Program-made: the position numbers and the translations under genes | In this document: in pieces, positions 11,643 to 47,208 of the stretch | How the letters are laid out: each line of letters starts with the position of its first letter | Numbering within the stretch: the first letter of the stretch is position 1 | Notes under the pieces: generated by a model | Database searches by the model: none | What the model was told of the DNA's origin: nothing | The model's input: only the letters and a program-made list of their open reading frames with translations | Assembly: GCA_947568535.1 (NCBI GenBank) | Contig: CANOPF010000002.1 | Location: forward strand, 1 to 53,682 | Direction: 5' to 3' | Origin: an uncultured Clostridium sp. | Lineage (GTDB): Bacteria > Bacillota > Clostridia > TANB77 > CAG-508 | Length of the DNA: 53,682 nt

Positions 11643-11675
11643 TAGGGGTAATAGGAACAGGAAAGGAACGATTTT

Positions 11676-12381
11676 TTGCCAATTACAATAAAAGAATTAC
11701 CAGAATTAGAACGACCTTATGAAAAAATGCAATGGTATGGAGAAAAGTCATTATCAAATGCGGAATTACTTGCCATTATTATTAAAACAGGGACAAAACA
11801 AGAGACTTCTGTACAAGTAGCACAAGAAATATTAAAGTTAAATCAAACAGAAACAGAAGGGATTAATTTTTTAAGAAATATAACCATAGAAGAGCTTATG
11901 GAGATTAATGGTATTGGGAGAGTGAAAGCCATTCAATTAAAAGCAGTAGGAGAATTGGCAAATCGAATGACTATGCCATTCCATTATAAAAAAATTATCA
12001 TTAAAGAACCTTATGACTTAGCAAAAATTATGATGGAAGAATTACGATTTCAAAAAAGAGAAATTGCCAAAATTATTATTTTAAATAATAAAAATGAAAT
12101 ATTGAAAATGAAGGATATCGCTATGCGGAGGAGCTAATTTTGCTAATCTTTCCGTAAAAGATATTGTAGAAGAGCCCATTAAAATGAAAGCACCAAAAAT
12201 TATTTTAGTCCATAATCATCCAAGTGGAGATGCAACGCCAAGCCAACAGGATATTGAATTTACGAATCATATATATGATGCCACTAGTTTATTAGGTATT
12301 CAATTATTAGACCATTTGGTCATAGGAAATAAAACATATACCAGTATCTTTTCAACAATAGCTTCAGAAACAGAAGAATAA
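11676..12381 (+). pseudogene. radC: RadC-family JAB-domain protein, split by a +1 frameshift near nt 12117
   Basis: N-terminal part carries ...LSNAELLAIIIKTGTKQETSVQVAQEIL...INGIGRVKAIQLKA. The second frame, open from 12112, reads RISLCGGANFANLSVKDIVEEPIKMKAPKIILVHNHPSGDATPSQQDIEFT (JAMM motif). Deleting one nt restores a normal RadC. Confidence 0.85.
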
Positions 12382-12435: not shown

Positions 12436-13528
<1,093 letters not shown>

Positions 13529-21700: not shown

Positions 21701-23590
21701 AAAGAAGATGAAGTAACAAAAGGAAGTATTGTATTAAAGGCAGAAAATTTAGAGGAAACCATACCATTAATGGAAAATACCATAGAAAAAGCAGATGTAA
21801 AAGTAGTGACTACTTATGGTTCTAACGAAGCAGTAGAATTTATTGCTGATACAGAAAATGCATTCTTATATACTCTTGAAAATTTAACCAATAAGACTTT
21901 AGAAAATATAGAATTGAAGGTTGTCCTACCAGAAGGAGCAAGTTTTAGCCCAAATTATCAAAAAGATACAGATATCTATGAGTTTGTGGGATATGAAAAT
22001 AGAGAAGTAAAGTTAAAAATTCATCAATTGGCTGTTAATCAAAAGTTAACTATACCATTATCCATCACAATTGGTGAAATAGATAGTCATAAATTAGAAC
22101 AAGAATATACATTTTTCTGTGAAGCTACTGTTAATCATCAAACATATTATTCAAATGAAATAGAAAAAATAGCTAAACAAAATAGAGCAAAGTTAGGTAT
22201 ATTACAAAAAGCAAATAAAACAGGTGAATATGCAAAAGAAGGAGAGGAAATTACCTATACGACAACCATTACCAATCAATCTCTTTTAGACACAGAATTA
22301 ACCATAGAAGACAATTTAGAAGAAATTTTAGAGATAAAAGAAGCATATCTAGAAAAAGAAGGACATAAACTAAAGGATTTTGAAAATAGAGAAGAATCAT
22401 TTGTTAATACACAATACCCACTAAAAGCAGGAGAAACCATTCAAGCCATCATTAAGACAAAAGTAGGAGAGAATGAAGATGATATTACTGAATTTAGTCA
22501 TTATTTAGATATTTATAATTCTGTACAAAGTGATGAATCCAATGCAATTACATATCAATTAGAGGGTACAGAAGGAATAACAAAAGGAGACAAAGGAAGT
22601 ATTCGTGGAAAGGTATGGCTAGATAGTCATAAAGATGGAATAAAAGAAGAAACAGGAATTAGCCAAGTAGAAGTGTTATTAATCCATGCAGAAAATGGTA
22701 AAGTAGTAGCCAATACACAGACTAATAGTGAGGGAGAATATCAATTCCAGAATTTAGACAATGCTCGTTATTTGGTAGGATTTAAATATGACACAACGAA
22801 ATATACAGTAACAAAATATAAAGTAGAAGGAAGTAATGAAGATAATAATTCCGATGTTATTAACAGGGAATTAACAATTGGTGGACAAACCATGACATTA
22901 GCAGTTACCGATGAAATAAACATAGCAGGGAATATAATGGATAATATAGATGCAGGATTTTATGAGAATAAAATTTTTGATTTGTCATTAAAAAAAGGAA
23001 TTAGGAAAATTATTACCCAAAGTTCAAGAGGAACAAAAGTACAAGAATATCATGATGTAGATTTAGCTAAAGTAGAATTACATGCCAAAGAAGTACAAGG
23101 TGCTAATGTTTTAATTGAATATGTAATCAAAGTAACCAACGAAGGCGAAATACCGGGATTTGTTAATAATGTAATAGACTATTTACCAAAAGAATTAACT
23201 TTTAGTTCTGAAATTAACAAAGATTGGTATGTAACAAATGGTAGATTATATAATCAAAGTTTAACCAATGAAGTAATACAACCAGGCGAAACAAAAGTAT
23301 TAAGTTTAACATTAACCAAAACAATGAGTGCAGACACAACAGGAACCATTCGTAATACAGCAGAAATTGGGGCAAGTTCAAATGATTTAGGACAAGCTGA
23401 TCGAGATTCAACACCAGGCAATAAACAAGAAAATGAAGATGATATTAGTTCAGTAGAGGTTATTGTTTCTGTTAGTACTGGTGCAATGACCATAATGGTT
23501 ACCAGCATAACCATTATAATAGGATTACTATTTATTAGTTTGATTATCTATCAATTACGAAAAACAACAGTAAAAGACGAGGAGGTGTAA
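18788..23590 (+). CDS. Giant surface protein A1 (1600 aa): N-terminal anchor/signal, long beta-rich region with DUF11-like repeats, SdrD-B/CnaB-like domain, DUF11-like anchor-proximal domain, xxxTG sorting-like signal
   Basis: AAGGAGG SD. SdrD-B-like GKVWLDSHKDGIKEETGISQVEVLLIHAENG...SEGEYQFQNLDNARYLVGF...NSDV (about 22594-22870). DUF11-like FDLSLKK...LIEYVIKVTNEGE...NTAEIGA...DRDSTPGNKQENEDD. C-terminal SVSTG (23468-23482) plus hydrophobic stretch plus RK tail. Confidence 0.85.
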   Translation: MNYKVLKSMIAILLIITLVGLNVMFLGNKVAIAIYEELEKQQGTTNVENIIFDAYFHEEETKKHSKQAKINEGDNLILDLTVKNVGVLEEGKIKLENTNFTIDTEKVKNENIKTINEETNEITLNHLSSGNINIVLPIKFNKEDANTFHYFDQENMVTLTGKYKQSDTNTKDVKGQVVTRLMWEDEAEVELTQEVEKYLNLGEKGILLEQKVSLAITNHVLPMERQAIQVKVPELDGNYPSKVVVLYNGRKLEETAYQWNEEHRTIDIQQEQNKDNIQWGTGIEEYKIIYTYPKEAETETKNIELDTTAITKLYTKEEVTQRDCQPLTINYKGSNITIDKITTPSIDKGYMYANVNRQVSYQEKISTEFSQVDLLEDTITLTADEKFIDAKKTKHNVQNSIETKKIQINKDNLLAILGTEGNIQVQKTDGTILTNINANVEADENGNIIYEVNSTDSIQIQMTKPQQEGTFVIYIEKAINGQTGYTKEAVKTFVALEDTTIVKDTEVVGIKTIALQEPVTEAKLSINNDNLSALENNENIQLVITLKSDEAKYKLWKNPHLYLKLPQGIETIKVNSTQILYTDSLVIESANLVEEDKAIDIQMRGEQTEFQNSMNEGIQIIINADVSFAKTTPSQLAKIELIYENKNDTIGEQKTDIGINIHSKVGALLYNRLEGYNEENEKLETISQQTIEGELNTRAEARVGKAHMEVVNNYEDVMKEVNTIIHLPNTQNLEEKQSTINLALAEAIETQKDNVNIYYATQDIEKDSQEWTSEVPKLEDIQKVKIVVKELQPGESIPVNYTMTIPENLTENQEAYQKTDLTYEYQGKEFDTYATVRLATPDEKVSQVVEQENNGLGVQVKVSTHDKEINNGDMVREGQTIRYHIDVTNHTGKELKNFSLEGLQTDAEGNTNVTFFHEKEIKEYQPIVAQEVVVKRYMEDDTLKSITLEKEKILEGEVVSFQYEFTVNKKQKEDEVTKGSIVLKAENLEETIPLMENTIEKADVKVVTTYGSNEAVEFIADTENAFLYTLENLTNKTLENIELKVVLPEGASFSPNYQKDTDIYEFVGYENREVKLKIHQLAVNQKLTIPLSITIGEIDSHKLEQEYTFFCEATVNHQTYYSNEIEKIAKQNRAKLGILQKANKTGEYAKEGEEITYTTTITNQSLLDTELTIEDNLEEILEIKEAYLEKEGHKLKDFENREESFVNTQYPLKAGETIQAIIKTKVGENEDDITEFSHYLDIYNSVQSDESNAITYQLEGTEGITKGDKGSIRGKVWLDSHKDGIKEETGISQVEVLLIHAENGKVVANTQTNSEGEYQFQNLDNARYLVGFKYDTTKYTVTKYKVEGSNEDNNSDVINRELTIGGQTMTLAVTDEINIAGNIMDNIDAGFYENKIFDLSLKKGIRKIITQSSRGTKVQEYHDVDLAKVELHAKEVQGANVLIEYVIKVTNEGEIPGFVNNVIDYLPKELTFSSEINKDWYVTNGRLYNQSLTNEVIQPGETKVLSLTLTKTMSADTTGTIRNTAEIGASSNDLGQADRDSTPGNKQENEDDISSVEVIVSVSTGAMTIMVTSITIIIGLLFISLIIYQLRKTTVKDEEV

Positions 23591-23591
23591 T

Positions 23592-26500
23592 ATGAAGAAG
23601 CTTAAACAAATAGGTTATATTTTATTCATGTTAATCATTATTGTTTTGCTCAATTATCATACAGCAGAAGCAGCAGGAGTAAAAGGGTTAACCACAGAGC
23701 AAATATTTAATTGGGTAAGTAAAGAAAATGATGCATTTATAAAATTAGATGCAAAAGCATTATTAAAAACGTATTACAGTGAAAATCAAATACAATCAAC
23801 TATCAATGAAGCATCACATGGACCATGGTCTAAATATTGGCGATGTATACGTAGTTTTGAAACTAATCCCGAAAAATCATGGGGATTTAACCTAAAAAAC
23901 GTTATTGATATTGATTCAGATGGAGAAGTAAAAGTAACGTATATGGATAAGAATACACCCAAAACAGAGGAAATTACAAAAGGAAGAGCACAAAGATTGT
24001 TTAACAATTGGGGGTATGCCATAAGTACAGATTTAGATGTTAAAGCAGATGCTAGTAATAACTTTGGTCAAAACTCGTATTATGGTCATGATTACTATTA
24101 TGCCTACCGAAGCACATTAAAGAGTAACCATGTTTACTATCCAGGAGATTACAAAGAAGATTTTGGTCATAGGTTAGAGGCTTTAACATCTCCAACAGCA
24201 AGAAAATATGTCAAAAAAGGTTACACTGTTCGTATTTTAGTGGCTACCATGGAAAAAAATAAAGGTCAAGCAAGACTTATTTTTGGAAGAGCTAAAAGTA
24301 TAGATATAGATGAACCCGATCTAGGAAATTTAAAGGTAATTAAAAAAGCCACTAATTCAGATGTAAAATTAAAAGATGTAGGATTTACTGTTCAACAAGA
24401 ATCAACAGGTAAATTTGTTAAAGAAGTAACAACAAAAGGAAAAAAAGAAATCAAGTATGTCAATACAGAAAAGGAAGCACAAGTATTTTTTACGAATAGC
24501 AAAGGTGAAAGACTAATTAGTAATCTACAGACAGGAACTTACTTAGTTAAAGAAGTAAGTAATCCAAATGAGTATTATGAAGTTGCTGTTGAAGAAATAA
24601 AAAAGAAAGTAAAGGCAAAAAATACCGTAGAAATTGAAATGGAAAATACACAGGTTTATGTTGATTTATCTGGATATGTATGGGAAGATAAGTTTGACGG
24701 AGCCAAAATGAAAGAAAGAAATGACTTATATCGAGATGATCCACTTTATGATGGAAAAGATGAATTAAAAAATGGTATTAAAGTAAGATTAATGAAGCGA
24801 AAAAGTCATACAGATAGTAAAACAGGACAGATTATCTTAGATACACCAGAAAAAGTAAGAGAAACAATAACAAGTGCATTGGGTAGGTATTCTGCAACAG
24901 GTAAAATACAAGATAATAGAAATAATGGAAATGGAGAATATTTCTTTGAGAAAGTACCAGTAGAAGATTTAGAAGATTATTATATAGAATTTGAATATGA
25001 TGGAATGACTTATACAAATGTTAATCCACATATAAAAGTAAATAATGGTTCAAAAGCAATAGAAGGTGACGCACGAAAAGTACTAAATCAATCATTTGGT
25101 GTAATCAATGGCTCTACAGCAGGAGAAATAAATCAAGGAACGTATAACATAAATGCTAGAACAGATTTAGCAGGATATACCATCAGTGAATATTTTAAAC
25201 CAGGACAAAAAGAAATTACTTACATAAATCTAGGATTGCGTGAAAGAGATCAACCAGATCTATCTTTACAAAAAGACTTGCAGACAGTCCAATTATCAAT
25301 TAATGGATATGGACATACCTATTATTATAATCAAAGATATACACCACCAGGAGAAAATCAAAATGGCTCTAACTTAGGTGTTCAATGGGCAGAAAAGGAA
25401 TTAGATGGAACAAAAACATATTTAAGACCTATATATCAAGCAGATGTTGACTATACAGATACAAACACAGACAACGAATTGAAAGTAAAGATAACCTATA
25501 AAATAAGAATCAATAATGCAACAACAGGAGAGAAATTACAAGCACGAGTACATGAGGTAGTAGACTATTATGATGCACGATACGAAGGGAAACCAAAAGC
25601 AGGAACAGGATTAAATGCCCAAGGAGAATTGACAGGAGAGATTTCTTGTTCAGAACCAGTAGCTTATGGAACAGAATACAAAAAAATTATCATTAATACT
25701 GGAGATGGAGAACTATTGGGAAGTGGAGAAACTGGAGGTAAGCCATCATATAAAGATATCTATGTACAATTTACATTAGGTAGACAGGCTGTGCTTAATA
25801 TTTTAAATAACCAAGAGAATTTAGACAATGTAGCAGAAATTAATGCATATTCTATTTATGATGCAGAAGGAAATCCATATGCCGCTGTTGATAAAGACTC
25901 TACTCCAGGTAACTGTAAGCCAGGACAACCAGATACTTATGAAGACGATACAAGTGAAAGTCCATCGTTAAAACTAGAAGTAGCAGAAGCAAGAGAGATA
26001 GCTGGTAAAGTATTCTTAGATGAGACAGCACCAACATTAACAGTAGGAGAAGAACGTAGAGGATCTGGAAAATACGAAGACAACGAGAAAGGAATTGCAG
26101 GAGTAAAGGTTGTATTGAAAGAAAACAAGGAAAACGGAAAAACATATGATGAAGCAGAAACAAATGAAGAAGGAGACTTTTTAATTAATGGATTTATACC
26201 AGGAGATTATACATTAACATATACCTGGGGAGATGACACTTACACAGTACAAGACTTTAAAGGAACGATTTATGACAAAGAAAGATATACCATAAATCAA
26301 ACAGATAAATATTGGTATAAGGGAACAAACAAAAATGATCCAAACGAAAGATATTCAGATGCAATAGATGATTATTCATTAAGACAGAAGATTGATCAAG
26401 AAAGTGCACAAGGAAATGAGACAAGCAAACAAATGCATTCAACAACACCAACAATAGGAATTGGTGTAGAATATGAAACCATTTATACAGCTTCAACAGG

Positions 26501-27458
26501 AGATAAATATACATATAGAATTAACCATATAGACTTTGGAATTGTAGAAAGAGCAAGACAACAATTATCTATTTCAAAAGATGTTTCAGCAATAAAAATG
26601 AAATTGGCTAATGAACAAACAATTATTGATGCTACAGTAAATGCAGATGGAACATTAACAGGTACTCGTAAAGATTTAACGTATGGTCCACCTAATGGAA
26701 TATCCAATGGATTTGTGAAGGCAGAAATTGATGATGAGTTAATACAAGGAGCAACATTAGAGATTACCTATAAAGTTAGTGTGCATAATCAGAGCGAATT
26801 AGATTATGATTCGAAAGAATATTACCACTTTGGCAATCCAATAGGCGATATTATTTCATTAAAACCAGATGGAGTTTATGATTATTTAGATAATCAAATG
26901 ATTGTATCTGATAAATCTTCTACTACATGGAAAGTAGAGAATAAGGAAACAATGATCAATGAACCAACGATAGTGGAAACCTATTTTAATGAAGGTAAAG
27001 TAGAAGGAACAGACGGAACATATCAATGGGAAACAACAATAGAAAGTTATCAAGTGGTATTCACACAATGGAGTCAAACCATAATAGAAGAAAGTACAGA
27101 GACAATAAGAGACATTAAACTTAAGAATAAGACCATTTTGAAAAATGCACAACTTGAGCAGGAATTAAAACCAGGAGAAAGTAAAGAAGTAGAATTATAT
27201 ACGTCTAAGGTATTAGCCAATACAGATGAAATCAACTTGAACAATGATGTAGAGATGACACACATAAAACGTACAACAAAAACAGGAAGAATGCCAGATG
27301 TTGCAACTTCTAAAGCGTATGATAGAGGAGAAACCATAATTGTTACAGCAAACACTGGAGGCAACAAGAATTACCTTGCACCAATAGTAATAGGAGCCAT
27401 GGCTATGGTTATTTTAGGAGCAGGAGTTGTGTTAATTAAAAAGAAAGTACTTAAGTAA
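23592..27458 (+). CDS. Giant surface protein B1 (1288 aa): signal peptide, unassigned N-terminal domain, CnaB-type domain, two (SdrD-B-like + DUF11-like) modules, xxxTG sorting-like signal
   Basis: GAGGAGGTG SD; the start lies 1 nt after the A1 stop. Signal peptide ...NYHTAEA/AG. CnaB/E-box-like GTYLVKEVSNPNEYYEV. SGYVWEDKFDG... and AGKVFLDE...EGDFLINGFIPGDYTLTY. DKDSTPGNCKPGQPDTYEDD. C-terminal TANTG (27345-27359) plus TM segment plus KKKVLK. Confidence 0.85.
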   Translation: MKKLKQIGYILFMLIIIVLLNYHTAEAAGVKGLTTEQIFNWVSKENDAFIKLDAKALLKTYYSENQIQSTINEASHGPWSKYWRCIRSFETNPEKSWGFNLKNVIDIDSDGEVKVTYMDKNTPKTEEITKGRAQRLFNNWGYAISTDLDVKADASNNFGQNSYYGHDYYYAYRSTLKSNHVYYPGDYKEDFGHRLEALTSPTARKYVKKGYTVRILVATMEKNKGQARLIFGRAKSIDIDEPDLGNLKVIKKATNSDVKLKDVGFTVQQESTGKFVKEVTTKGKKEIKYVNTEKEAQVFFTNSKGERLISNLQTGTYLVKEVSNPNEYYEVAVEEIKKKVKAKNTVEIEMENTQVYVDLSGYVWEDKFDGAKMKERNDLYRDDPLYDGKDELKNGIKVRLMKRKSHTDSKTGQIILDTPEKVRETITSALGRYSATGKIQDNRNNGNGEYFFEKVPVEDLEDYYIEFEYDGMTYTNVNPHIKVNNGSKAIEGDARKVLNQSFGVINGSTAGEINQGTYNINARTDLAGYTISEYFKPGQKEITYINLGLRERDQPDLSLQKDLQTVQLSINGYGHTYYYNQRYTPPGENQNGSNLGVQWAEKELDGTKTYLRPIYQADVDYTDTNTDNELKVKITYKIRINNATTGEKLQARVHEVVDYYDARYEGKPKAGTGLNAQGELTGEISCSEPVAYGTEYKKIIINTGDGELLGSGETGGKPSYKDIYVQFTLGRQAVLNILNNQENLDNVAEINAYSIYDAEGNPYAAVDKDSTPGNCKPGQPDTYEDDTSESPSLKLEVAEAREIAGKVFLDETAPTLTVGEERRGSGKYEDNEKGIAGVKVVLKENKENGKTYDEAETNEEGDFLINGFIPGDYTLTYTWGDDTYTVQDFKGTIYDKERYTINQTDKYWYKGTNKNDPNERYSDAIDDYSLRQKIDQESAQGNETSKQMHSTTPTIGIGVEYETIYTASTGDKYTYRINHIDFGIVERARQQLSISKDVSAIKMKLANEQTIIDATVNADGTLTGTRKDLTYGPPNGISNGFVKAEIDDELIQGATLEITYKVSVHNQSELDYDSKEYYHFGNPIGDIISLKPDGVYDYLDNQMIVSDKSSTTWKVENKETMINEPTIVETYFNEGKVEGTDGTYQWETTIESYQVVFTQWSQTIIEESTETIRDIKLKNKTILKNAQLEQELKPGESKEVELYTSKVLANTDEINLNNDVEMTHIKRTTKTGRMPDVATSKAYDRGETIIVTANTGGNKNYLAPIVIGAMAMVILGAGVVLIKKKVLK

Positions 27459-27478
27459 AATCATCATCTAAGAGGAAG

Positions 27479-27508
27479 AAAAAACGAAGGAATAACCTTC
27501 GTTTTTTT
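27479..27508 (+). terminator. Intrinsic terminator after B1
   Basis: AAAACGAAGG (27481-27490), loop AATAA, CCTTCGTTTT (27496-27505), followed by TTT. Confidence 0.7.
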
Positions 27509-27714
27509 GCGATATAGATAACACCATAGAAAATAATATGAATCACATGACCATGGTTTGTTCTTACGCAAATAAGAAAAATAGAGAATAAATCTAAAAT
27601 GTTACCATTATGTTATAAAAATGTAAACAAAACTTAAAAAATAGATAAGAAAGCTCAAAAGTCCATTTCCCTATAAACAAAAAAGAAAAGAAAAAATGGC
27701 CAAAGAAATAGATA

Positions 27715-27742
27715 TTGATTTCAGCAAAATGTTTACTATAAT
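27715..27742 (+). promoter_or_regulatory. Candidate promoter of the A2-B2 operon
   Basis: TTGATT (27715-27720), 16-nt spacer, TATAAT (27737-27742), about 45 nt upstream of the ATG. It has the same -35 hexamer as the proximal A1 candidate. Confidence 0.4.
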
Positions 27743-27784
27743 ATAAGGAAAAAGATATTTTATGATACAAGGGAGTATAGACTA

Positions 27785-30700
27785 ATGCAAGAAAAAATAG
27801 TAAAGATATTATTCATTATCATATGTATAGTTACCTTAGTGGGATTGGATATCCTATTTTTGGGAAATCAAGTCATTCTAGCTTTGTATGAAGGATTAGA
27901 AGAACAAGAAACCACGACTAATAGCAAAAATGTTTTGTTTGATGCCTATTTTGAGGAAGAGACAAAAGTACATCATAAAGAACTCAAAATTAGTCAAGGA
28001 AATAACGTCATTCTAGATATCACCATAACAGAAGGTGGCATTTTGGAAGAGGGAGTAATAAAAATTGAAAACGCCAATTTTAAAATAGATAAGGCAAACA
28101 TAAAAGATAAAAATATCAAATGTATTCATGAAGATAGCAATGAAATAGAATTAACTGTAATTCCCAATGGAAATGTAAAAATAGTTTTACCCATTCAATT
28201 TGAACGACAAGAAGCAAAAAATATAGACTATTTTGATCAAGAAAATCAGATAAAGATTAAGGGGAAATATAAAAGTAGTGATACGAAGAAAAAAAGTGTT
28301 CAAGGTCAGGTTCTAACTAGAACACAATGGAGTGAAGATACCGATATAGAGTTAACACAAAAAATAGAAAAATATTTAGATTTAGGAGAAAAGGGGATTG
28401 TATTACAACATACCGTCAATGTTAAACAAGATAATAACACTTTGCCACTTAATAAGCAGATTCTTACTGTTGAAGTGCCAGAGTTGGCCAAACAAATGCC
28501 AAAGGAAATAAGCGTATTGTATAATGGAAATTCATTAGAACAAGAGAATTATCAATTAGATAGGGATAATCATATATTGACCATTAAAAGAACATACAAT
28601 GATGATGAAATTCATTGGGAGGAAGAAGAAGGTGAATATAAAATAATTTATACCTATGAAAAAGAGGTAGGTAGTGAATCTAGAGTCATCAATCTTAAAG
28701 CCAATTTAGTTACACAATTATACACAAAAGAACCAATTATAAAAACAGATGAACAATCAACAAAGATAAACCGTAAAGGAAAGATCATAACATTAAGAAA
28801 ACAAGTAACACCTCATATAGGAAAAGGTTATATGTATGCTAATGTGAATAATACAGTAGAATATAAAGAGAAAATGCAATTAGAAATTTCAAAAGTAGGT
28901 GTAATAACAGAAAATACGATAATTAAGCAAACAGATCATTTTGTTGATGCTGAAGAAGTAAGAAAAACTACAAATCATAGTATTACCTATAAAAGTATTG
29001 AACTAGATAAAAACAATTTACTAACTATTTTAGGAGAAAAGGGAAATATTCAATTACAACAAGAAGATGGGACAATGATTACTCGTATCGATAAAGATAC
29101 GTCATCCAATGAAGAAGGGAAAATAGTCTATGATTTACCAAATTCAGTGCATGGATTAACAATCGTATATACCACACCAGTAAAGGAAGGAAACCTAAAT
29201 ATCCAACTAGTAAAAACAATATGTGGTGAAACAGGATATACGAAACAAGAATTACAGTCATTTGTTTTATTAGAGAATATTACTTATATGGAAAATGAAG
29301 TTGAACAAGAGAAATTAACAAAAAATATAGCATTAAAAGAAAGCATGGCAAAAGCAAAACTAGAATTCAACAAGACAAATTTATCAACATTAGAAAAAAA
29401 CGAAAATGTACAAATTTTAATTACTTTATTATGCAACAATGAGAATGATAATCTATGGAAAAATCCTTATGTGGAAGTTCAGTTACCACAAGAAATCCAG
29501 AAAATAGCAATAAAATCCGTAAAGACTCTTTATCATGGTGGAATCTATATCGAACAGGCAATGTATAAAAAAGATGAGAAAGTAATTAGTTTATCCATGA
29601 AAGGAGAGCAATTAGCATTTCAAACCGATATGAATGAAGGAATACAAATTATCATTCATGCAGACATTACATTAGATAAGAAAACACCAACAAAAGACGC
29701 AGAAGTAAAAATGTTATATGCCAATGAAGGAGAAGCACAGAAAGAAGAAAAGCAGAGTGTTCAGTTAACTTCGAAATATGGTGTATTTGTCTATAATCAG
29801 ATAAGCAATTATAATGAATCGAAAGAAAATTTAGAGAGTCTTAGTGAAGAGATAGTAGAAGGAAATTTAGATAGTCATGCAGAAGAAAGAATAGCCAAAC
29901 AAGAGGTTACCATTATTAATAATTATCAAGAGCCAATAGAAGAAGTTGTTGTCGTAGGAAGAATTGCTGAGAATAAGCAAAAACAAAATAGTATAGAAAC
30001 AGAGTTATTAGAAGAATTGGCAGTAAGTAGAGAAGATGTCAACATATTTTATTCAGAGGATCAAAATGCGACAGAAAATAGTGATTCATGGGGAGATTAC
30101 CGAGAAAGTGTAAAATCATATAAAATTGTATTAGCTAATCAACATATTAATCCATATGAAAAAATGACTTTATCTTATCCATTAAAAATACCTAATAATA
30201 TTGAGCCAAACAAAACGAATTATCATGTAGAAGAAGTAACTTATCAGTATAAGGGACAAGAAGAAAAAATCACCTCTTCTATGAAACTGTCTACGGCAAA
30301 GGAAGAAGAATTAGCCAAACAAACACAACAAGTAAAAAAAATAGATGGCATGGAAATTAACATGAAATCTAAAATAGGAAAAAATGAAATAACTAACGAT
30401 GAAGTAATTTATGGAGGGCAATCCATTGCTTGTACCATAGAAATAACTAATCACACAGGAAAAGACCTAAACCATTTAGCTATAAAAGCTGACTACGAAA
30501 ACGTAAATTTTTACGATGAAGTAAGGTATGAATCAATTGGTGGATTAGAAGAAACGTTTAATATATATATAGAAGAGGTAGAAAATCAAACACAAAAAGA
30601 ATGGGGTATTGAACAGTTAAAAGACGGAGAGGCTACGTTAATTGAATATGAATTTTCGGTAAAAGAAATACAAGAGGGGAATATTCTTGGAAAATTAATC

Positions 30701-32590
30701 TTAGGAGCGGACGAATGGGGAGAACACACCATAAAGGTAATGGAAAATCCAATAAAAAAAGCAGAAGTAAAATTGTATATCAGGAATAGTCAATCAGAAG
30801 ATATGATACTAGATACCAATACATATATTCCTGTTAAAGTATATGTTAAAAATTTATCTGACGTTGAACTAAATGATCTTATTGTCAATATTCACTTAGA
30901 TTCATATTCTTATTTTGATACAGATTGGCATTATGAAGGATGTGAAGTTTTAGACTATGACCAAACAAAAAATATCGTAAAAATGAAAATATATTCTATA
31001 AAAAGTCAAGAGACCATGATTATGGATGCTAATATTTGGTTCCATGAATTAGATGAACAGACAAAAAAAGTAGATATTCATATCTTAGCCGACTTAGAAA
31101 TGAATCATAATTCATATATATCGAATGCATTAATTAGAACAGTATACCAAGGAAAACCAAGTATAGAAATGAAACAAGAAGGAAGCGTTCATGGTGAATA
31201 CATTAAAGATGGAGATCAAGTAACCTTTACGACTACCATTACAAACACGGGCGTTAGAGGAGGAGTTTTTACCATTGAAGATGAGTTCCATGATACATTT
31301 GAAATAATTAATGCGTATTACGAAAAAGATGGAATAAAACAAGAATTAAGTGAAGAAGGAAATATCATTAACTTTGATGTTCAGTTAGATGAAGGAGAAC
31401 AAATAACATTAGTCATAGAAACAAGGATATATGCAGAATGTATGGAAGGAGATTCGGTTAGCAATAAAGTCTTGTTAAGTGGAATGTATTATGAAACAGA
31501 ATCGAATGAAATAACCTATAAACGATATCAACCTTCACAAGAAGAAAAGCCAGAAGCCCAAACATATAGTATTTCTGGAAGCGTGTGGTTAGATAAAAAT
31601 AAAAATGGAGCAAAAGATGCGGAAGAAGAAGGATTGAAAGGCATCAAAGTGATTTTGTTAGATGCTACTACAGGAGAGATAGTAAAAGATAAAAACGGAA
31701 GTCAAAAAACGATATCTATACAACATGATGGCAATTATGTATTTGAAAATTTAGAAAGAAATCGATATATGGTAGTATTTGAATATGACGACCAAAAATA
31801 TACTGTGACAGAATATCAAAAAACAGGGGTAAACGAGCAAATCAATTCGGATGTTATTGCTAAAAATGTAACAATAGAGGGAGAAAAGAAGGTAAGAGCA
31901 ATAACTGATATGTTGATATTGGAAAATCAACATATAACCAATATTAATGCGGGATTTTGTGAAAATAAGATTTTTGATTTATCATTACAAAAAGCAGTAA
32001 AAAAAGTCATTGTACAAAATACAAGAGGAACAAGTATATATGAATACAACGATGTAGATATAGCAAAGGTAGAATTAAGTGCAAAAGAAATAGAAGGCTC
32101 AAATATATTAATCGAGTATAGTATAAAAGTTAAAAATGAAGGCGAAATAGCTGGATATGTAACTGATGTACTTGATTATATACCAAAAGATTTAACCTTT
32201 CGTTCAGAAATCAATAAAGATTGGTATATTTCTACAGACGGTATTCTTCATAATCAAAGTTTGACCAATCATATTTTGGCACCTGGACAAAGCAAAGAGT
32301 TAACGTTAATGTTAACCAAGACGATAACCACTCATAATATAGGATTAATACATAATACAGCGGAAATTGGAAAAAGTAGTAATCCTTTAGGACAAGAAGA
32401 CATAGATTCAACACCAGGAAACAATCAAAAAGATGAAGACGATCTTAGTTCAGCACAAGTAATTATTTCTATATCTACAGGTAGAATAGGTTGTTATATT
32501 AGTGTGATGCTAATTAGTGTAATCCTATTTCTGATTGGTATTTATGTTATAAAAGGAAAAGTATTTGTAAGAAAGGAGAAAAATACATGA
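27785..32590 (+). CDS. Giant surface protein A2 (1601 aa), colinear paralog of A1
   Basis: It aligns with A1 from the N-terminal anchor (LVGLDILFLGNQV vs LVGLNVMFLGNKV). The match continues through the SdrD-B-like domain (GSVWLDKNKNGAKDAEEEGLKGIKVILLD...) to DIDSTPGNNQKDEDD and SISTG (32468-32482) plus TM segment plus basic tail. Confidence 0.85.
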   Translation: MQEKIVKILFIIICIVTLVGLDILFLGNQVILALYEGLEEQETTTNSKNVLFDAYFEEETKVHHKELKISQGNNVILDITITEGGILEEGVIKIENANFKIDKANIKDKNIKCIHEDSNEIELTVIPNGNVKIVLPIQFERQEAKNIDYFDQENQIKIKGKYKSSDTKKKSVQGQVLTRTQWSEDTDIELTQKIEKYLDLGEKGIVLQHTVNVKQDNNTLPLNKQILTVEVPELAKQMPKEISVLYNGNSLEQENYQLDRDNHILTIKRTYNDDEIHWEEEEGEYKIIYTYEKEVGSESRVINLKANLVTQLYTKEPIIKTDEQSTKINRKGKIITLRKQVTPHIGKGYMYANVNNTVEYKEKMQLEISKVGVITENTIIKQTDHFVDAEEVRKTTNHSITYKSIELDKNNLLTILGEKGNIQLQQEDGTMITRIDKDTSSNEEGKIVYDLPNSVHGLTIVYTTPVKEGNLNIQLVKTICGETGYTKQELQSFVLLENITYMENEVEQEKLTKNIALKESMAKAKLEFNKTNLSTLEKNENVQILITLLCNNENDNLWKNPYVEVQLPQEIQKIAIKSVKTLYHGGIYIEQAMYKKDEKVISLSMKGEQLAFQTDMNEGIQIIIHADITLDKKTPTKDAEVKMLYANEGEAQKEEKQSVQLTSKYGVFVYNQISNYNESKENLESLSEEIVEGNLDSHAEERIAKQEVTIINNYQEPIEEVVVVGRIAENKQKQNSIETELLEELAVSREDVNIFYSEDQNATENSDSWGDYRESVKSYKIVLANQHINPYEKMTLSYPLKIPNNIEPNKTNYHVEEVTYQYKGQEEKITSSMKLSTAKEEELAKQTQQVKKIDGMEINMKSKIGKNEITNDEVIYGGQSIACTIEITNHTGKDLNHLAIKADYENVNFYDEVRYESIGGLEETFNIYIEEVENQTQKEWGIEQLKDGEATLIEYEFSVKEIQEGNILGKLILGADEWGEHTIKVMENPIKKAEVKLYIRNSQSEDMILDTNTYIPVKVYVKNLSDVELNDLIVNIHLDSYSYFDTDWHYEGCEVLDYDQTKNIVKMKIYSIKSQETMIMDANIWFHELDEQTKKVDIHILADLEMNHNSYISNALIRTVYQGKPSIEMKQEGSVHGEYIKDGDQVTFTTTITNTGVRGGVFTIEDEFHDTFEIINAYYEKDGIKQELSEEGNIINFDVQLDEGEQITLVIETRIYAECMEGDSVSNKVLLSGMYYETESNEITYKRYQPSQEEKPEAQTYSISGSVWLDKNKNGAKDAEEEGLKGIKVILLDATTGEIVKDKNGSQKTISIQHDGNYVFENLERNRYMVVFEYDDQKYTVTEYQKTGVNEQINSDVIAKNVTIEGEKKVRAITDMLILENQHITNINAGFCENKIFDLSLQKAVKKVIVQNTRGTSIYEYNDVDIAKVELSAKEIEGSNILIEYSIKVKNEGEIAGYVTDVLDYIPKDLTFRSEINKDWYISTDGILHNQSLTNHILAPGQSKELTLMLTKTITTHNIGLIHNTAEIGKSSNPLGQEDIDSTPGNNQKDEDDLSSAQVIISISTGRIGCYISVMLISVILFLIGIYVIKGKVFVRKEKNT

Positions 32591-35500
32591 AAAGATATGT
32601 AAAGATTATTATTATCCTATGTTTATTTTCATGTATGTTAATTATTCCAAAGCAGTCAATTCTTGCTTTTGAATCAGCGGGAAAATTAGATGACTTTATA
32701 GCATTAACACAAAAGAATGCATTTTCAACAACTGATTTGTCAACCTTTAAAAAAACATATTTAGGTAAAACATTAAGTATGGGAGCGACAGATCCATCAC
32801 ATAAACAAGGTGCTTCTTGTGCTGGTCATGGTAATAGTATCCTTCAAGAAGCACCAATAGCAACCCGATTTATACAATGTATATTAGATGTCGAGACAAC
32901 ATTTAATGAAAAAACCAGAAAAGTAGAAGTGAATCGTACCTCTTTTTTTACCAATAATAAAGGGGAGATACAGCCTTCTTTAAAAGAAGAAGATATGAAT
33001 AGTGCACAAAGAGAATTGTTAAATAAAATAGCTTATGTAGCCTTTAAAGGAAAAGAAGAAAAGGGAAGCAAGGAAACTGATATTGATACACCATATAAGA
33101 AGACTTTACATGATTTATTACATAAAAGTTTGAATAACGAGCAAAGAAACTTAGGCATTAGTAAGTACCTAAAAACAGGAAAAATAGATAATGAAACAAA
33201 AGCAGATACTACCATTATTACTCAGGCAAATGCGTATAATAACAAGATAAAAAATGGCGATAAGTTTTATTCGTTAAAAACAGCTCCAAAGTTAAGCAAT
33301 AAAACAGTAAAATTATCAGGTGATGCAGAAGCAAAAGAGTATACATATATAGGGCCATTCAAAATTGTAAGTGGAGGAGGAATTAAACCTAGTGGTATAC
33401 AATGTATAGGAGCAAAGGGAGGAAAAAGAACAGTAAAAGGAATTGTGACAACAGCAAATGGAACCAATCCTAAAAAGGTTTCCACTATTCAAGACAAAAA
33501 GCAATTTTGGGTTGTTGTAGTAGGAAAATTAACCAAAATGCCTACCATAACATTAGAGAAGAAACTATCCTATATAGCTAATGCAAGAGTTGTCATATTA
33601 ATTAATACATCTCCAACTCATAGTGTACAACATAATGCTGTTTTTTCAGGAGCAACAGAAAAGACGGCAACATTAACATTAGAATTAACAGGAGCAGGTG
33701 TAGAAACAGGGAATGGAAACATAAACATTGAAAAGAAATCAAGTACAACAGGGGAACCAATGAAAGATGTTCAATTTACTATACAAAATAGTGAAGGTGA
33801 ATATTATACCAAGGCAAAGATTTTTTCTTCTACTTTTACCGATGATTGTATATGGATAACTGGTGCAAATGGAAGAATAGAGATTGCCGATATAGAATCA
33901 GGTATTTATACAGTAACCGAAATAGGTGTATTAAATAATGGTTATGGACAAGATAATTATGGGTATTTATCTAGTGGAGAGGAACAAACTGAAGAAGTAG
34001 AAATAGGAGGAACAGTAACATTTATTTTTGAAAATGTGAAACATACAGGCAAATTAGTCATTAACAAAATAGATAAAGGTACAGGTCAACCAATGAGTAG
34101 AATAGGATTTACTTTACAAATGGTATCACCAGGTGACAAGTATCAGAAATATATCCACATCAATGATAAGGGTAATATTACCTATGAATCAACTCCACAA
34201 ACGTTATTAACAACAGTAGATGGAAAATTAGTCATTGATGGTATATGGGAAGGAGCCTATAAATTAACAGAAGTAGAAAATCCTTATTTTGGATATGAGG
34301 TACTCCCTAAGATAATTGAAGAGCAGTTAATTGTGCAAGGGCATAGTCAAGAAGTTACAATTATTGTTGAAAATGAAAGAAAGTATATTAAACTATCAGG
34401 ATATGTATGGGAAGATAGAAATAATCTTATTGGAAAGAAATGGGAAAAAGATAATCTCTATACACCAAACAGTAATGACAAAAAACTACAAAATGTAGAG
34501 GTTATACTAAAGAAATCAGATGGAACAATATTGGATACACAAATAACCAATGAAAATGGCACATATGTATTTGGAGATTTTGCCTCAAACCAAAAACCAA
34601 TTGAAATCGCTGATTTACATGGAGCTTATATAGAATTTACTTATAATGGCATGTGTTATCAATCTGTAGAAGTAAATGCCAATCAAGATAATGGAAGTAA
34701 AGCAACAGATGAACCATTAAGAAAGGAATTTAATGAGGCGTATAGCACGATAACTAAAGGAAAAGCACAAAATGGAAATTACAATTTAGTCTATGATTAT
34801 CAGGATCACAAAGCTATCTTAACTTATGGAGAAAAACAAAAGTATGTATATGGATATGAAGGACAAAAATACCCTATTTCGGGTATTAGCAATCAATATA
34901 CATTAAAAGCTAATACATTAGATGCGTCCCCAGATAAATGGTTAGGACAATCAACATATACCATAGAAGATGTTTACAAAAATGGCATACAAGAGATTTC
35001 GAACATTAATTTAGGATTAACAGAAAGAGAAATGCCAGATATTGCTTTGGTACAAGATATTCAAGATGTCAAGATTGGGTTAAATGGATATATGCATACC
35101 TATCAATATGCACAAAGATTTTCCAAGTTAAATCAAGAAATAGCCAAATTTGTAGAAGAAAATAAAGATACGGATAAAATCTTTAATATCGGTGTGAATT
35201 TTGGAGAGAAATATGGTCCAGAACAATATACAGCTACCATTTATTCCTCAGACATTGTATACAATAACCAAGAGGGAAATCAGGGGAAATTAGGTGTATG
35301 GATTAATTATGAAATGAGATTAATGAATCAAACAGCTTCGGTAAAAACCGTAGTCAATGAGTTATATAATTATTATGATTCTGATTATGAAGTTGACTCA
35401 GTAACAGATAAAAATGGCAAACACCTTACCTATACTATAGATGAAGGGTATGTACAAAACAATCGTAAAAGAATGTTAATCCATCCAGAAGAGGGAATTT

Positions 35501-37236
35501 CCATAGAAGAACAAGGAGAACAAAAAGTTAAGATAACTTATCGAGTAAAAAACGAAGCAGTGAGCAGGATGTTAAATCACGATCAAATATTAAACTCAAT
35601 TACGGAAGTAGTATCTTATTCATCTTATGATAAAGATAATCATAGATATGCGGGTATTGATGTAGACTCTGAACCCAATAATGCTATAATAGGAAAGACA
35701 GAAACATATGAAGATGATATTGATCAAGCACCATCAATTATTTTACAGAGTAGAAATACAAGAAAGATCGAAGGTACAGTTTGGGAAGAAAATGCAATAG
35801 AAGAATTATTGAAAAAAACTGGATATGACAAGGAAAGACTAGGAAATGGTCAATATGATGAAGGTCAAGAAGGAATAATAGAAAATGTGCAGGTAGAATT
35901 ATTAAAAATAGAAGAAAACAAAATGTCATGGGCTTCGTTGTATCAAGCAACAGGACAAGTAGTAACCCAAGCAAAGACGAAGACAGATGGGAAAGGATAT
36001 TATTGCTTTGATGGTATCATACCAGGAAGGTATGTAATCAGGTTTACGTATGGAAATAATAGTATAGTTTGTGAACCAAATGGAAATAAAAAGACTATTC
36101 AAGAAAAAGATGGCGTGGAATATTATAAATCAACATTATATCGAACAAAAAACATAGGAGGAGAAAAACAATCATTCTATCAGGAAGAAGACCCATATTG
36201 GTTTAAAGATAGTCAGGAAAGTGCAAATAGGTTATCCGATGCTAGAGATGATAGGCGTTTAGTACAACAAAGAATAAATGATAGTCAGGAAATAAACTAT
36301 AACACAGTAATACAAGAAAGCAAAATACAAGAGATTCAAGCCAGTACAGATCCTTTTGTAATGGAAATGGATTTTAATCAAAATGACACAGAACGTATTA
36401 GTCAGTTTGGACAGCCACTTAAGTTTGTATTTGAACATCTAGATTTTGGTATTATTCGTAGGCCAAAACAAAACTTGAGTTTAAAGAAAGAAATTGCTCA
36501 TGTTAAAGTAACATTAGCAAATCAACAAACCATTATTGACGGAGATCCAAGAAAAGGAGGATTAAAACATCTAAAATATTCGCCAGATGGAAATGTACAG
36601 ATTGAATTAGATAGTGAAATTATGCAAGGTGCAACATTAACATTAACTTATGATATTATAGTAGATAATACTCAGTGTGAAATCGATTATCATGACATCA
36701 ATTATTACGATTTCGGAACGCAAAATAGGAATAAGTGGAAAGTAGCAACCATTAAGAATTTATTTGAATATCCAAGTAATGAATTTAACTTTGAACAAAA
36801 GTATAATCAAAATTGGGCTATTGTAGATGTAAAACAGTTAGACAACAACAAGTTAAAACCAGGTCTTAAGAAAAAACTGGAAATTTACCAAACGATTTTG
36901 CAAACACAACAATTTGCTATGATGAAACCAGGCGAGAAAAAAATAGAGAAAGTGATATTAAGCAAGTTAATTGCTAATACAGAGGAAGACTTATCTTTTG
37001 ATAATGACATAGAAGTAAATACTTATCTACATAGTAAAATGGATAAAACAATACCAGGAAATTATGATCCAGCCGATAGCCATACAAAAGAAAAAGATAA
37101 TGATCATAAAAATCTTGTTCTTACTGTACCAACAGGAGAAAATCGAGAATATTTACCTTACATTATCTTAGCCATAGTATCATGTATTATTTTGGTAGTA
37201 GGCATAATAAGCATAAAACGAAAAGTATTACAATAA
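32587..37236 (+). CDS. Giant surface protein B2 (1549 aa), paralog of B1 with a longer N-terminal region and two CnaB-type domains
   Basis: ATGA overlap with A2. Signal peptide ...SILA/FE. E-box-like GIYTVTEIG and GAYKLTEVENPYFGYEV. SGYVWEDRNN... INLGLTEREMPDIALVQD... VDSEPNN...YEDDIDQAP. C-terminal TVPTG (37123-37137) plus TM segment plus KRKVLQ. Confidence 0.85.
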   Translation: MKRYVKIIIILCLFSCMLIIPKQSILAFESAGKLDDFIALTQKNAFSTTDLSTFKKTYLGKTLSMGATDPSHKQGASCAGHGNSILQEAPIATRFIQCILDVETTFNEKTRKVEVNRTSFFTNNKGEIQPSLKEEDMNSAQRELLNKIAYVAFKGKEEKGSKETDIDTPYKKTLHDLLHKSLNNEQRNLGISKYLKTGKIDNETKADTTIITQANAYNNKIKNGDKFYSLKTAPKLSNKTVKLSGDAEAKEYTYIGPFKIVSGGGIKPSGIQCIGAKGGKRTVKGIVTTANGTNPKKVSTIQDKKQFWVVVVGKLTKMPTITLEKKLSYIANARVVILINTSPTHSVQHNAVFSGATEKTATLTLELTGAGVETGNGNINIEKKSSTTGEPMKDVQFTIQNSEGEYYTKAKIFSSTFTDDCIWITGANGRIEIADIESGIYTVTEIGVLNNGYGQDNYGYLSSGEEQTEEVEIGGTVTFIFENVKHTGKLVINKIDKGTGQPMSRIGFTLQMVSPGDKYQKYIHINDKGNITYESTPQTLLTTVDGKLVIDGIWEGAYKLTEVENPYFGYEVLPKIIEEQLIVQGHSQEVTIIVENERKYIKLSGYVWEDRNNLIGKKWEKDNLYTPNSNDKKLQNVEVILKKSDGTILDTQITNENGTYVFGDFASNQKPIEIADLHGAYIEFTYNGMCYQSVEVNANQDNGSKATDEPLRKEFNEAYSTITKGKAQNGNYNLVYDYQDHKAILTYGEKQKYVYGYEGQKYPISGISNQYTLKANTLDASPDKWLGQSTYTIEDVYKNGIQEISNINLGLTEREMPDIALVQDIQDVKIGLNGYMHTYQYAQRFSKLNQEIAKFVEENKDTDKIFNIGVNFGEKYGPEQYTATIYSSDIVYNNQEGNQGKLGVWINYEMRLMNQTASVKTVVNELYNYYDSDYEVDSVTDKNGKHLTYTIDEGYVQNNRKRMLIHPEEGISIEEQGEQKVKITYRVKNEAVSRMLNHDQILNSITEVVSYSSYDKDNHRYAGIDVDSEPNNAIIGKTETYEDDIDQAPSIILQSRNTRKIEGTVWEENAIEELLKKTGYDKERLGNGQYDEGQEGIIENVQVELLKIEENKMSWASLYQATGQVVTQAKTKTDGKGYYCFDGIIPGRYVIRFTYGNNSIVCEPNGNKKTIQEKDGVEYYKSTLYRTKNIGGEKQSFYQEEDPYWFKDSQESANRLSDARDDRRLVQQRINDSQEINYNTVIQESKIQEIQASTDPFVMEMDFNQNDTERISQFGQPLKFVFEHLDFGIIRRPKQNLSLKKEIAHVKVTLANQQTIIDGDPRKGGLKHLKYSPDGNVQIELDSEIMQGATLTLTYDIIVDNTQCEIDYHDINYYDFGTQNRNKWKVATIKNLFEYPSNEFNFEQKYNQNWAIVDVKQLDNNKLKPGLKKKLEIYQTILQTQQFAMMKPGEKKIEKVILSKLIANTEEDLSFDNDIEVNTYLHSKMDKTIPGNYDPADSHTKEKDNDHKNLVLTVPTGENREYLPYIILAIVSCIILVVGIISIKRKVLQ

Positions 37237-47004: not shown

Positions 47005-47208
47005 TGATTCCGTAAGTTTTTACACGATTACTTATGAAAAAGAAAGGTAATGTTAAGAAAATGTCATATAAATGTAATAACAAAATAACAGAAAGAGATC
47101 TTGTGTTTCCGTAATAACTAGAAAGTTAAATGTTTATTTTCTACAAATCCTCCCTTGAAAAATAAAGGTGAATATGTGATGATATAAGAGAATAATGTGG
47201 AGGAAAAA
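47005..47208 (+). promoter_or_regulatory. Conserved ~200-nt upstream leader of LRR gene 1 (paralogous to 51333-51545)
   Basis: The same ordered blocks occur upstream of both LRR genes: (A/T)(A/T)CCGTAAG, AAAATGTCATATAAA, GTTTCCGTAAT, TTAAATG, C(C/T)CTTGAAAA and GGTGAATATGT(G/A)ATGATA(T/A)AAG. Confidence 0.5.

Follow-up and report, generated by a model that had tools for sequence, protein, structure and literature searches.

Among the described cell-wall sorting signals, the canonical LPXTG anchor, represented by the TIGR01167 model, is read by housekeeping sortases at the C-terminus, where a scissile-type T-G precedes a hydrophobic segment of about 22 residues and a K/R tail. The class B sortase Spy0129 of S. 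pyogenes accepts EVPTG/QVPTG and VPPTG/VVPTG, with a consensus of (E/Q/V)(V/P)PTG and a cut between T and G (available part of PMC3019223), and SrtB of C. difficile cleaves SPKTG, PPKTG, SPSTG and SPQTG peptides but, in the available part of the same source, not LPETG, NPQTN or NVQTG (PMC4155245). The window analysed here, the whole 53,682-nucleotide stretch of contig CANOPF010000002.1 from an uncultured Clostridium sp. (GCA_947568535.1), encodes four giant surface proteins, A1, B1, A2 and B2, whose C-terminal tails carry SVSTG, TANTG, SISTG and TVPTG. Judged by sequence, these tails are family-conserved C-terminal anchoring signals with the build of a sortase signal, in two classes (A-type and B-type) that both lack Leu-Pro. 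Variant sortase signals are the best explanation of the four tails, with a probability of roughly 0.55, because T-G is invariant, the residue before T is free, the geometry resembles that of a cell-wall sorting signal and the genome is rich in sortases.

Within a genome bin of 54 contigs and 1.16 Mb (82.8% complete), which is labelled G000 and whose contigs carry C-numbers, the window corresponds to contig C2, with a GC content of about 30%. Four large consecutive open reading frames (ORFs) lie between the mreB-mreC-mreD-PBP2-minC genes and spoIIE, all on the forward strand: A1 (18788..23590, 1600 aa, with SdrD_B and a DUF11/CARDB-like C-terminal domain), B1 (23592..27458, 1288 aa, with SpaA prealbumin-like and SdrD_B/CarboxypepD_reg domains), the A1 paralogue A2 (27785..32590, 1601 aa) and the B1 paralogue B2 (32587..37236, 1549 aa). 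The start codon of B1 lies 1 nucleotide past the A1 stop, and the ATG of B2 overlaps the stop of A2 (ATGA). An N-terminal secretion signal was read from the sequence of all four proteins, consisting in A1 of a K-rich start and a 20-residue hydrophobic core ending AIA ahead of IY, and in B1 of MKKLKQIGYILFMLIIIVLLNYHTAEA ahead of A.

The tails share one order: the motif is followed by 0-4 residues, then by an uncharged stretch of 22-23 residues and finally by a K/R-rich end. In the A1 tail (23468..23590), SVSTG (23468-23482, residues 1561-1565) is followed by the helix AMTIMVTSITIIIGLLFISLIIY (23483-23551), the tail QLRKTTVKDEEV (23552-23587) and the stop, and in the A2 tail (32468..32590), SISTG (32468-32482, residues 1562-1566) is followed by R, the helix IGCYISVMLISVILFLIGIYVI (32486-32551), the tail KGKVFVRKEKNT (32552-32587) and the stop. 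The B1 tail (27345..27458) consists of TANTG (27345-27359, residues 1252-1256), the linker GNKN, the helix YLAPIVIGAMAMVILGAGVVLI (27372-27437), KKKVLK (27438-27455) and the stop, and the B2 tail (37123..37236) of TVPTG (37123-37137, residues 1513-1517), the linker ENRE, the helix YLPYIILAIVSCIILVVGIISI (37150-37215), KRKVLQ (37216-37233) and the stop. At least two K/R residues stand at the tail start in all four, and the A tails are partly acidic at the end (A1 ...TTVKDEEV, A2 ...EKNT). The layout described for sorting signals, in which a motif lying about 17-45 residues from the C-terminus precedes a hydrophobic segment and a basic tail (available part of PMC4155245), is present in each giant protein.

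A canonical signal for comparison is found in the same window. The BspA-type leucine-rich repeat (LRR) surface protein (47197..49149, forward strand, 650 aa from GTG 47197) carries LPKTG at 49045-49059 (residues 617-621), a helix and the tail KYKEYKQI; 29 residues follow its motif, compared with 32-35 in the giant proteins, and each of the five pentapeptides occurs once in its own protein. A preliminary description of this DNA had placed all five pentapeptides exactly where they are found, and the tripartite layout it reported is confirmed on all four giant proteins. Its motifs for A1 and A2 hold, the C-terminal ends it gave for them were too short relative to the true tails QLRKTTVKDEEV and KGKVFVRKEKNT, and its LPKTG in the LRR protein stands with the qualification that the start may be GTG 47197 instead of the ATG 47209 it had used.

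The product of the T and G frequencies is 0.0034 per position in long ORFs of this genome, so that a few percent of C-terminal helices should have a TG within the few residues ahead of them by chance, and since A1/A2 and B1/B2 are paralogue pairs, the window supplies two independent events only. Conservation among relatives, as read from their sequences, is therefore the real test against chance, and the tails passed it. The C-terminal 400 residues of A1 retrieved 503 proteins and the C-terminal 389 residues of B1 retrieved 1567 (both at E<=0.001); in each case the best 120 listed were used together with the window's own proteins, reduced to distinct 60-residue tails and scored by the rule of a T-G with a helix within 8 residues. 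In the A family (121 proteins), 97 of the 100 distinct tails have T-G and the helix; among the misses, P0081 has GVSTG and a helix that the rule rejected, and P0014 and P0033 end otherwise. Position -3 is S in 94/97 tails, position -2 is I or V in 91/97, position -1 varies (R 41, K 25, S 11, G 9) and the helix begins immediately after G in 75/97, giving the consensus S-[IV]-[RKSG]-T-G. In the B family (122 proteins), T-G is present in 39 of the 40 distinct tails, with the pentapeptides TPPTG (20), TTPTG (13), TANTG (2) and TVPTG, TQPTG, TPNTG and TGNTG (1 each); the consensus is T-[PT]-P-T-G-[EQD]-N-[QK]-N, its last four positions being a polar linker, and the TANTG of B1 is a minority variant. 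T-G is thus kept in both families against an overall identity of about 45%.

For a wider view, the last 221 residues of A1 were searched exhaustively against 50%-identity representatives, with 2843 matches at E<=1e-3. Of the best 150 matches, 128 were new proteins, and their tails were counted. In this set 106/128 finish in T-G, helix and basic tail, two more such tails with a charged residue in the helix were missed by the rule, and the remaining 20 either have the module internally or are very long proteins with DUF11 repeats that end differently. No LPxTG stands at the homologous position in any of the 128 representatives, the 106 with a T-G tail included. The conservation of T-G is not due to chance, and the feature is, on this comparison of sequences, real, conserved and lineage-wide. 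Lack of conservation of the motif positions in orthologues, which the preliminary description would have counted against sorting signals, was not observed; the single motif [ST]-[VIA]-x-T-G that it proposed gives way to two family-specific signals with only T-G in common.

A third tail type was observed in a fifth giant protein of the same genome (C3:41452-45579), which has three DUF11 repeats and a sub-threshold thioester-domain match and ends in ...EDDIDDAPVMLSLTTG (MLSLTTG), a helix and KKFVL. Thioester-type adhesins usually carry LPXTG. KK(F/Y)VL-like ends were found in 10/10 tails of this MLSLTTG-like type, and the endings [KN]KK[VI]L or KK[FY]VL in 60/182 A tails and 29/42 B tails.

When compared with curated models, the B-type tails come closest to a described class. 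Taken alone, the B1 tail reaches 20.6 bits against a cut-off of 15.9 bits on TIGR01167 (LPXTG_anchor), more than the LPKTG tail of the LRR protein (16.0 bits), and full-length B1 scores 14.6 bits, under the cut-off. Among 18 typed tails of relatives, nine of the ten B-type tails reach the cut-off, and in six-frame scans of the genomes G053 and G007 the tail of the B1 orthologue was the top match. TIGR03065 (QVPTGV class, cut-off 21.35 bits) was not matched by any tail of the window, its best score among relatives being a sub-threshold 18.2 bits for the A-type tail of P0037. On the Rumino_NPXTG model NF033846, tails of B relatives reach 11-17.8 bits, under the cut-off of 23.5. The Ruminococcus NPXTG anchors, a family known here by model name alone, are likewise a lineage-specific variant anchor of gut Clostridia modelled separately by NCBI, and differ from the B tails in motif.

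With LPXTG proteins the giant proteins share the tail layout, the N-terminal export signal, a genome with multiple sortases and, in the A family, a variable residue before T (R/K/S/G) in the place of X; they differ in the absence of Leu and Pro from the motifs and, in A, in residues before T-G that are predicted to lie in a folded beta-strand. The pilin signals of S. pyogenes (Spy0128, Cpa) have an x-(V/P)-P-T-G core in common with the B-family consensus and with the TVPTG of B2; TVPTG and TPPTG (20/39) fit this core, and TTPTG (13/39), the TANTG of B1 and the A-type motif do not. The B proteins also have SpaA-type prealbumin-fold domains, as pilins and adhesins do. In contrast to pilin systems, there is no TIGR03065 match, no adjacent sortase and no co-distribution of a class B sortase, and the A and B proteins are 5-10 times the length of pilins. 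The pilin acceptor-lysine motif [WYF]PK[NDH] or PKN was not found in A1, A2, B1 or B2, a negative of little weight since pilins of S. pyogenes use a different lysine context (available part of PMC3019223).

C. difficile SrtB shares with the present system a Clostridia lineage, a non-LPXTG xxxTG signal and a cut between T and G. The A-type S-[IV]-x-T-G differs from SPxTG at position 2 only (I/V, not Pro), and neither class conforms to (S/P)PxTG, A having S then I/V and B having T then P/T. The preliminary description had credited SrtB with (S/P)PxTG, which agrees with the peptides cleaved, and with NVQTG, which SrtB does not cleave in vitro (available parts of PMC4155245 and, independently, PMC4371152). 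The system differs from SrtB in that the Pro-less NVQTG is left uncleaved and in that the class B enzyme of this lineage does not track the A and B proteins. In the literature searched, no relevant paper was found for the motif strings of the A and B families, and titles and abstract beginnings on sortase motifs in gut Clostridia held nothing on these tails. The B-type signal is thus close to a known signal class, and the A-type is without a described counterpart.

AlphaFold2 models distinguish the two classes as well. In the A1 model (residues 1330-1600, 25 aligned sequences, mean predicted local distance difference test score (pLDDT) 85), S-V-S falls in the final beta-strand (model residues 224-234), which T-G alone, as a coil of two residues, separates from the helix; the modelled domain resembles CARDB-type immunoglobulin-like (Ig-like) folds. 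In the B1 model (residues 1000-1288, mean pLDDT 83.6), the last strand stops at ...TIIVTA, N-T-G is coil and the linker GNKNY has a pLDDT below 50 before the helix starts. With T-G in coil ahead of a low-confidence linker, the predicted B site should be accessible, and in the models it looks so, the A site looking tight.

The sortases of the genome were then considered as candidate enzymes. The preliminary description had regarded a lone housekeeping class A sortase that does not cleave these motifs as an argument against these signals; six sortases (PF04203 matches above cut-off) were found in this 83%-complete genome. None of them is in the window, where the 27 other ORFs scanned gave no sortase gene. 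The one at C7:2623-3351 is of class B (TIGR03064, 166.8 bits, cut-off 153.75), and Spy0129 (3psq) and C. difficile SrtB entries are among its nearest solved relatives. It lies amid genes for PrgI, a TraG/VirB4-like P-loop ATPase, an N6/N4 DNA methylase and a MazF-like domain protein (C7:1-11000) and so belongs to a conjugative element. The other five reach the generic TIGR01076 only, and their assignment to classes A-F was given up as no NCBIfam class cut-off was reached. Two of these, termed the housekeeping sortases, are HK1 (C3:11966-12688, beside rsmA and mraZ) and HK2 (C30:4238-4930, between a HIT gene and ligA), whose nearest solved structures, 4d70 (E 5e-11) and 2kw8 (E 6e-14), respectively, are distant. 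The remaining three are C29:4459-5121, which is followed by a cohesin protein with LPQTG, C42:569-1246, which is preceded by a cohesin protein with LPKTG, and C1:47564-48217, which is followed by a 477-aa thioester-domain (TED) and SpaA protein (pair at C1:47564-49607). Helix and basic-tail C-termini were counted in 28 of the 1141 ORFs of at least 120 aa in G000, the other such tails carrying LPKTG (2), LPQTG (1), LPKAG (2), LPRAG (1) and LPQAG (1).

The distribution of these genes was determined in 101 genomes of the family and in a sample of about 300 genomes of the class. Sortases occur in 101/101 family genomes (2-14 each), HK1-like matches in 101/101 (E<=1e-20), HK2-like matches in 97/101 (E<=1e-40), the A-type module in 101/101 (E<=1e-12), B relatives in 59/101 (E<=1e-10) and a class B sortase in 73/101 (E<=1e-10, up to 8 matches per genome). 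In the class sample, the A module (8/300), HK1-like (8/301) and HK2-like matches (8/300) all fall within this family (f1), the A module thus being present in every one of the 101 family genomes and in none of the approximately 290 sampled class genomes of other families. Phyletic profiling as a way to choose the enzyme was abandoned: both candidates are near-universal in the family and confined to f1 in the class, which gives no discrimination between HK1 and HK2. Four genomes (G002, G028, G029 and G062) without an HK2-like match at E<=1e-40 have A modules and give a weak pointer. In G075 (99% complete), the HK1 and HK2 orthologues are the only sortases and hence the sole sortase candidates, and a B(NVPTG)-A(AMSTG)-B(MPPTG) array is kept ahead of spoIIE. 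The four sortases of G053 are HK1, HK2, one beside a 450-aa LPVTGM protein and one beside a 129-aa LPKTG protein. A predicted complex of the HK1 catalytic domain (residues 100-240, 3-row alignment) with the A1 tail (33 residues, 25-row alignment) obtained a score of 0.00 and a mark of 0.32, which counts neither way.

Several of these results weigh against sortase processing. Leu-Pro is absent from pentapeptide positions 1-2 of all four motifs (SVSTG, TANTG, SISTG and TVPTG), and the A-type motif is free of proline. No NCBIfam sorting-signal model is matched by the A1, A2 or B2 tail, and one of the eight typed A-type tails reaches the TIGR01167 cut-off; alignments to that model begin at model positions 3-5, i.e., from T-G onward, and six-frame scans gave matches in 14/14 control genomes, above the cut-off in 9, so that a pass is weak evidence. 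Known sortases read positions upstream of Thr, whereas in the wider relatives T-G alone is invariant, with S (58), G (19), T (17) and A (5) at position -3 among the 106. The B-family exception P0160 has PPQG instead of T-G, and the B orthologues of genus g32 (G073 L017:259-4416; G032 L018:1489-5643) end in ...TVTVLPPFGETYIYY..., where LPPFG has Phe in place of Thr. These rare relatives retain the helix and the tail, which suggests that anchoring by the helix can be enough. In G053, G007, G073, G032 and G075, the A and B genes have no sortase beside them. The main rival, still live though less probable, is that the tails are permanent membrane anchors, a state that the preliminary description had also allowed: helix and basic tail would tether the protein, and T-G would be an uncleaved structural junction (strand end, turn, helix cap). 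The relatives with FG or QG, the A-type tails that miss the curated models and the absence of an adjacent sortase speak for it. The A1 model, in which T-G is exactly the two-residue joint between strand and helix and the strand-embedded S-V-S has no linker, makes enzyme access doubtful, and the upstream positions show a strand pattern rather than a fixed pentapeptide. Tandem Ig-like domains of 1300-1600 residues could span the wall from the membrane. In addition, C. difficile has SPSTG and SPQTG proteins without sortase processing (available part of PMC5569036), and by analogy with these precedents motif, helix and tail are not proof of a sortase substrate. What membrane anchoring leaves unexplained is that three ectodomain families unrelated to one another (A, B and the MLSLTTG protein) all keep both T and G, which a purely structural joint would rarely do, that B tails pass the LPXTG-anchor model and that layout and C-terminal distance match those of the canonical LPKTG protein in the window. 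For B, a helix-cap role is inapplicable since T-G lies 4 residues ahead of the helix in a low-confidence linker.

Processing by a specialised sortase encoded elsewhere, either the class B enzyme at C7:2623-3351, by analogy with SrtB and Spy0129, or a substrate-linked sortase, was the other alternative of the preliminary description and appears improbable. In its favour, the C7 enzyme passes TIGR03064 and has these two enzymes among its structural neighbours, and class B enzymes are known readers of xPPTG/xVPTG and (S/P)PxTG (available parts of PMC3019223 and PMC4155245). No such sortase could be tied to the tails, however: the class B gene is part of a conjugative element and occurs independently of B relatives (43/59 genomes with B, 30/42 without), and it was not found in 16 of the 59 family genomes with B relatives, among them G053 (100% complete, same genus, same mre-minC-A-B-A-B-spoIIE locus), nor in G008, G033, G054 and G073 despite strong B orthologues. 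The three other sortases adjoin LPQTG, LPKTG or LPVTG substrate genes. A dedicated neighbouring sortase was rejected as well, none being present in the window, in the loci read in G053 and G075 or in three other loci, and the sortases of G053, G007, G073 and G032 lie on other contigs or distant from the A and B loci. Least probable of all is a non-sortase system, in which an intramembrane or juxtamembrane protease or transpeptidase would read T-G, in parallel to the exosortase and rhombosortase of other phyla. Confinement to one lineage is the pattern of lineage-specific sorting systems, and the module is within one family only (f1; 8/300 class genomes scored, one of the 301 being unscored); invariance limited to T-G and membrane context, unlike known sortase motifs, and the tail endings shared by many proteins would also agree with such a system. 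Against it, the search of this genome (83% complete) gave neither an exosortase nor a rhomboid, no conserved unexplained gene accompanies the A-B array in the loci read, and sortases are abundant and cut exactly at T-G.

Variant sortase signals are therefore retained as the explanation of choice, and their standing differs between the classes: B-type tails are likely to be sortase substrates, and for A-type tails the chances are about even. From the layout, the conservation and the inventory and distribution of sortases observed, we infer cleavage, wall linkage and the enzyme as follows. After export by Sec, helix and basic tail would keep the proteins in the membrane, where a sortase would cut between Thr and Gly; Thr would then be joined to peptidoglycan, resulting in a stalk of Ig-like domains of about 1300-1600 residues on the wall. 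The enzyme would most likely be HK1 or HK2, the near-universal sortases of the family, an adjacent dedicated sortase or the class B sortase being less likely. More speculatively, the A-type tails may represent a new, proline-less sortase class in which only T-G at the junction of domain and membrane is read, the residues before it being the last strand of a CARDB/DUF11-type domain, and which would be processed by one of two sortase lineages seen only in this family.

If this tentative proposal is correct, this small-genome family of gut Clostridia would rely on a code invisible to current annotation models to anchor the giant surface proteins that are its hallmark. The LPXTG-like models used by annotation pipelines mostly miss the tail carried by this protein module, which has 2843 cluster representatives (E<=1e-3) and occurs in all 101 family genomes sampled. 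If the tails are sortase signals, known sortase specificity would extend to a motif without proline and the tails would mark out the principal surface proteins that this uncultured gut lineage anchors to its wall, and a sortase that needs little beyond T-G in context would be of interest for protein ligation. If they are not, they would be a clear case in which xxxTG, helix and basic tail alone do not mark a substrate. Such a case would bear on the prediction of surface proteomes from metagenomes.

Several further observations were made on the surface proteins of this family. In genus g32, an A fragment beside the Phe-bearing B orthologue retains ...LSVKTG. Precomputed dockerin matches (PF00404) exist for many of the B homologues in other metagenomes; the domain scan gave no dockerin match in B1 or B2, and no Pfam match to a thioester domain was obtained in the B N-termini. 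Three small cohesin-domain proteins are present in G000 (C29:5154-5882 with LPQTG, C42:1257-2312 with LPKTG and C3:742-1557 with LPRAG), and giant proteins of this family could conceivably be linked through cohesin-dockerin pairing to scaffolds anchored in the wall. The surface proteins with LPxAG (C3:30721-31767, C3:742-1557, C9:19851-21275 and C17:23234-24034) are two BspA-type LRR proteins, one cohesin-domain protein and one VWA and GBS104-like tip-pilin Ig protein. The TED and SpaA protein on C1 ends in ...KLPVTGK, with one residue after G and neither a hydrophobic segment nor a basic tail, and would be an LPXTG substrate lacking any signal for retention in the membrane; G053 (L029:4119-6130) has the same sortase-TED/SpaA pair, with a protein ending in ...KLPVTGM. 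On C7, the class B sortase gene is followed by one for a lysine-rich protein of 486 aa, which has a single internal membrane segment and gave no Pfam match.

Within the window, 51546-53681 encodes another BspA-type LRR protein (LRR_5), which exceeds 712 aa and continues past the window end, so that its C-terminal signal lies outside the view. The radC gene (11655-12381) is in two overlapping frames, with the N-terminal part at 11655-12137 and the JAB part at 12112-12381, as is mreB (12436-13528), with the first approximately 80 residues at 12436-12690 and the remainder at 12638-13528. Intact radC (237 aa) and mreB (347 aa) are present in G053. The splits are probably assembly indel errors, which calls for caution in treating single frameshifts here as pseudogenes. 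A serine recombinase is likewise split (3936-5505), with a Resolvase-domain ORF at 3936-4562 and a Recombinase and zinc-ribbon ORF at 4570-5505, and a fragment of an IS110-family transposase lies at the window start (7-624).

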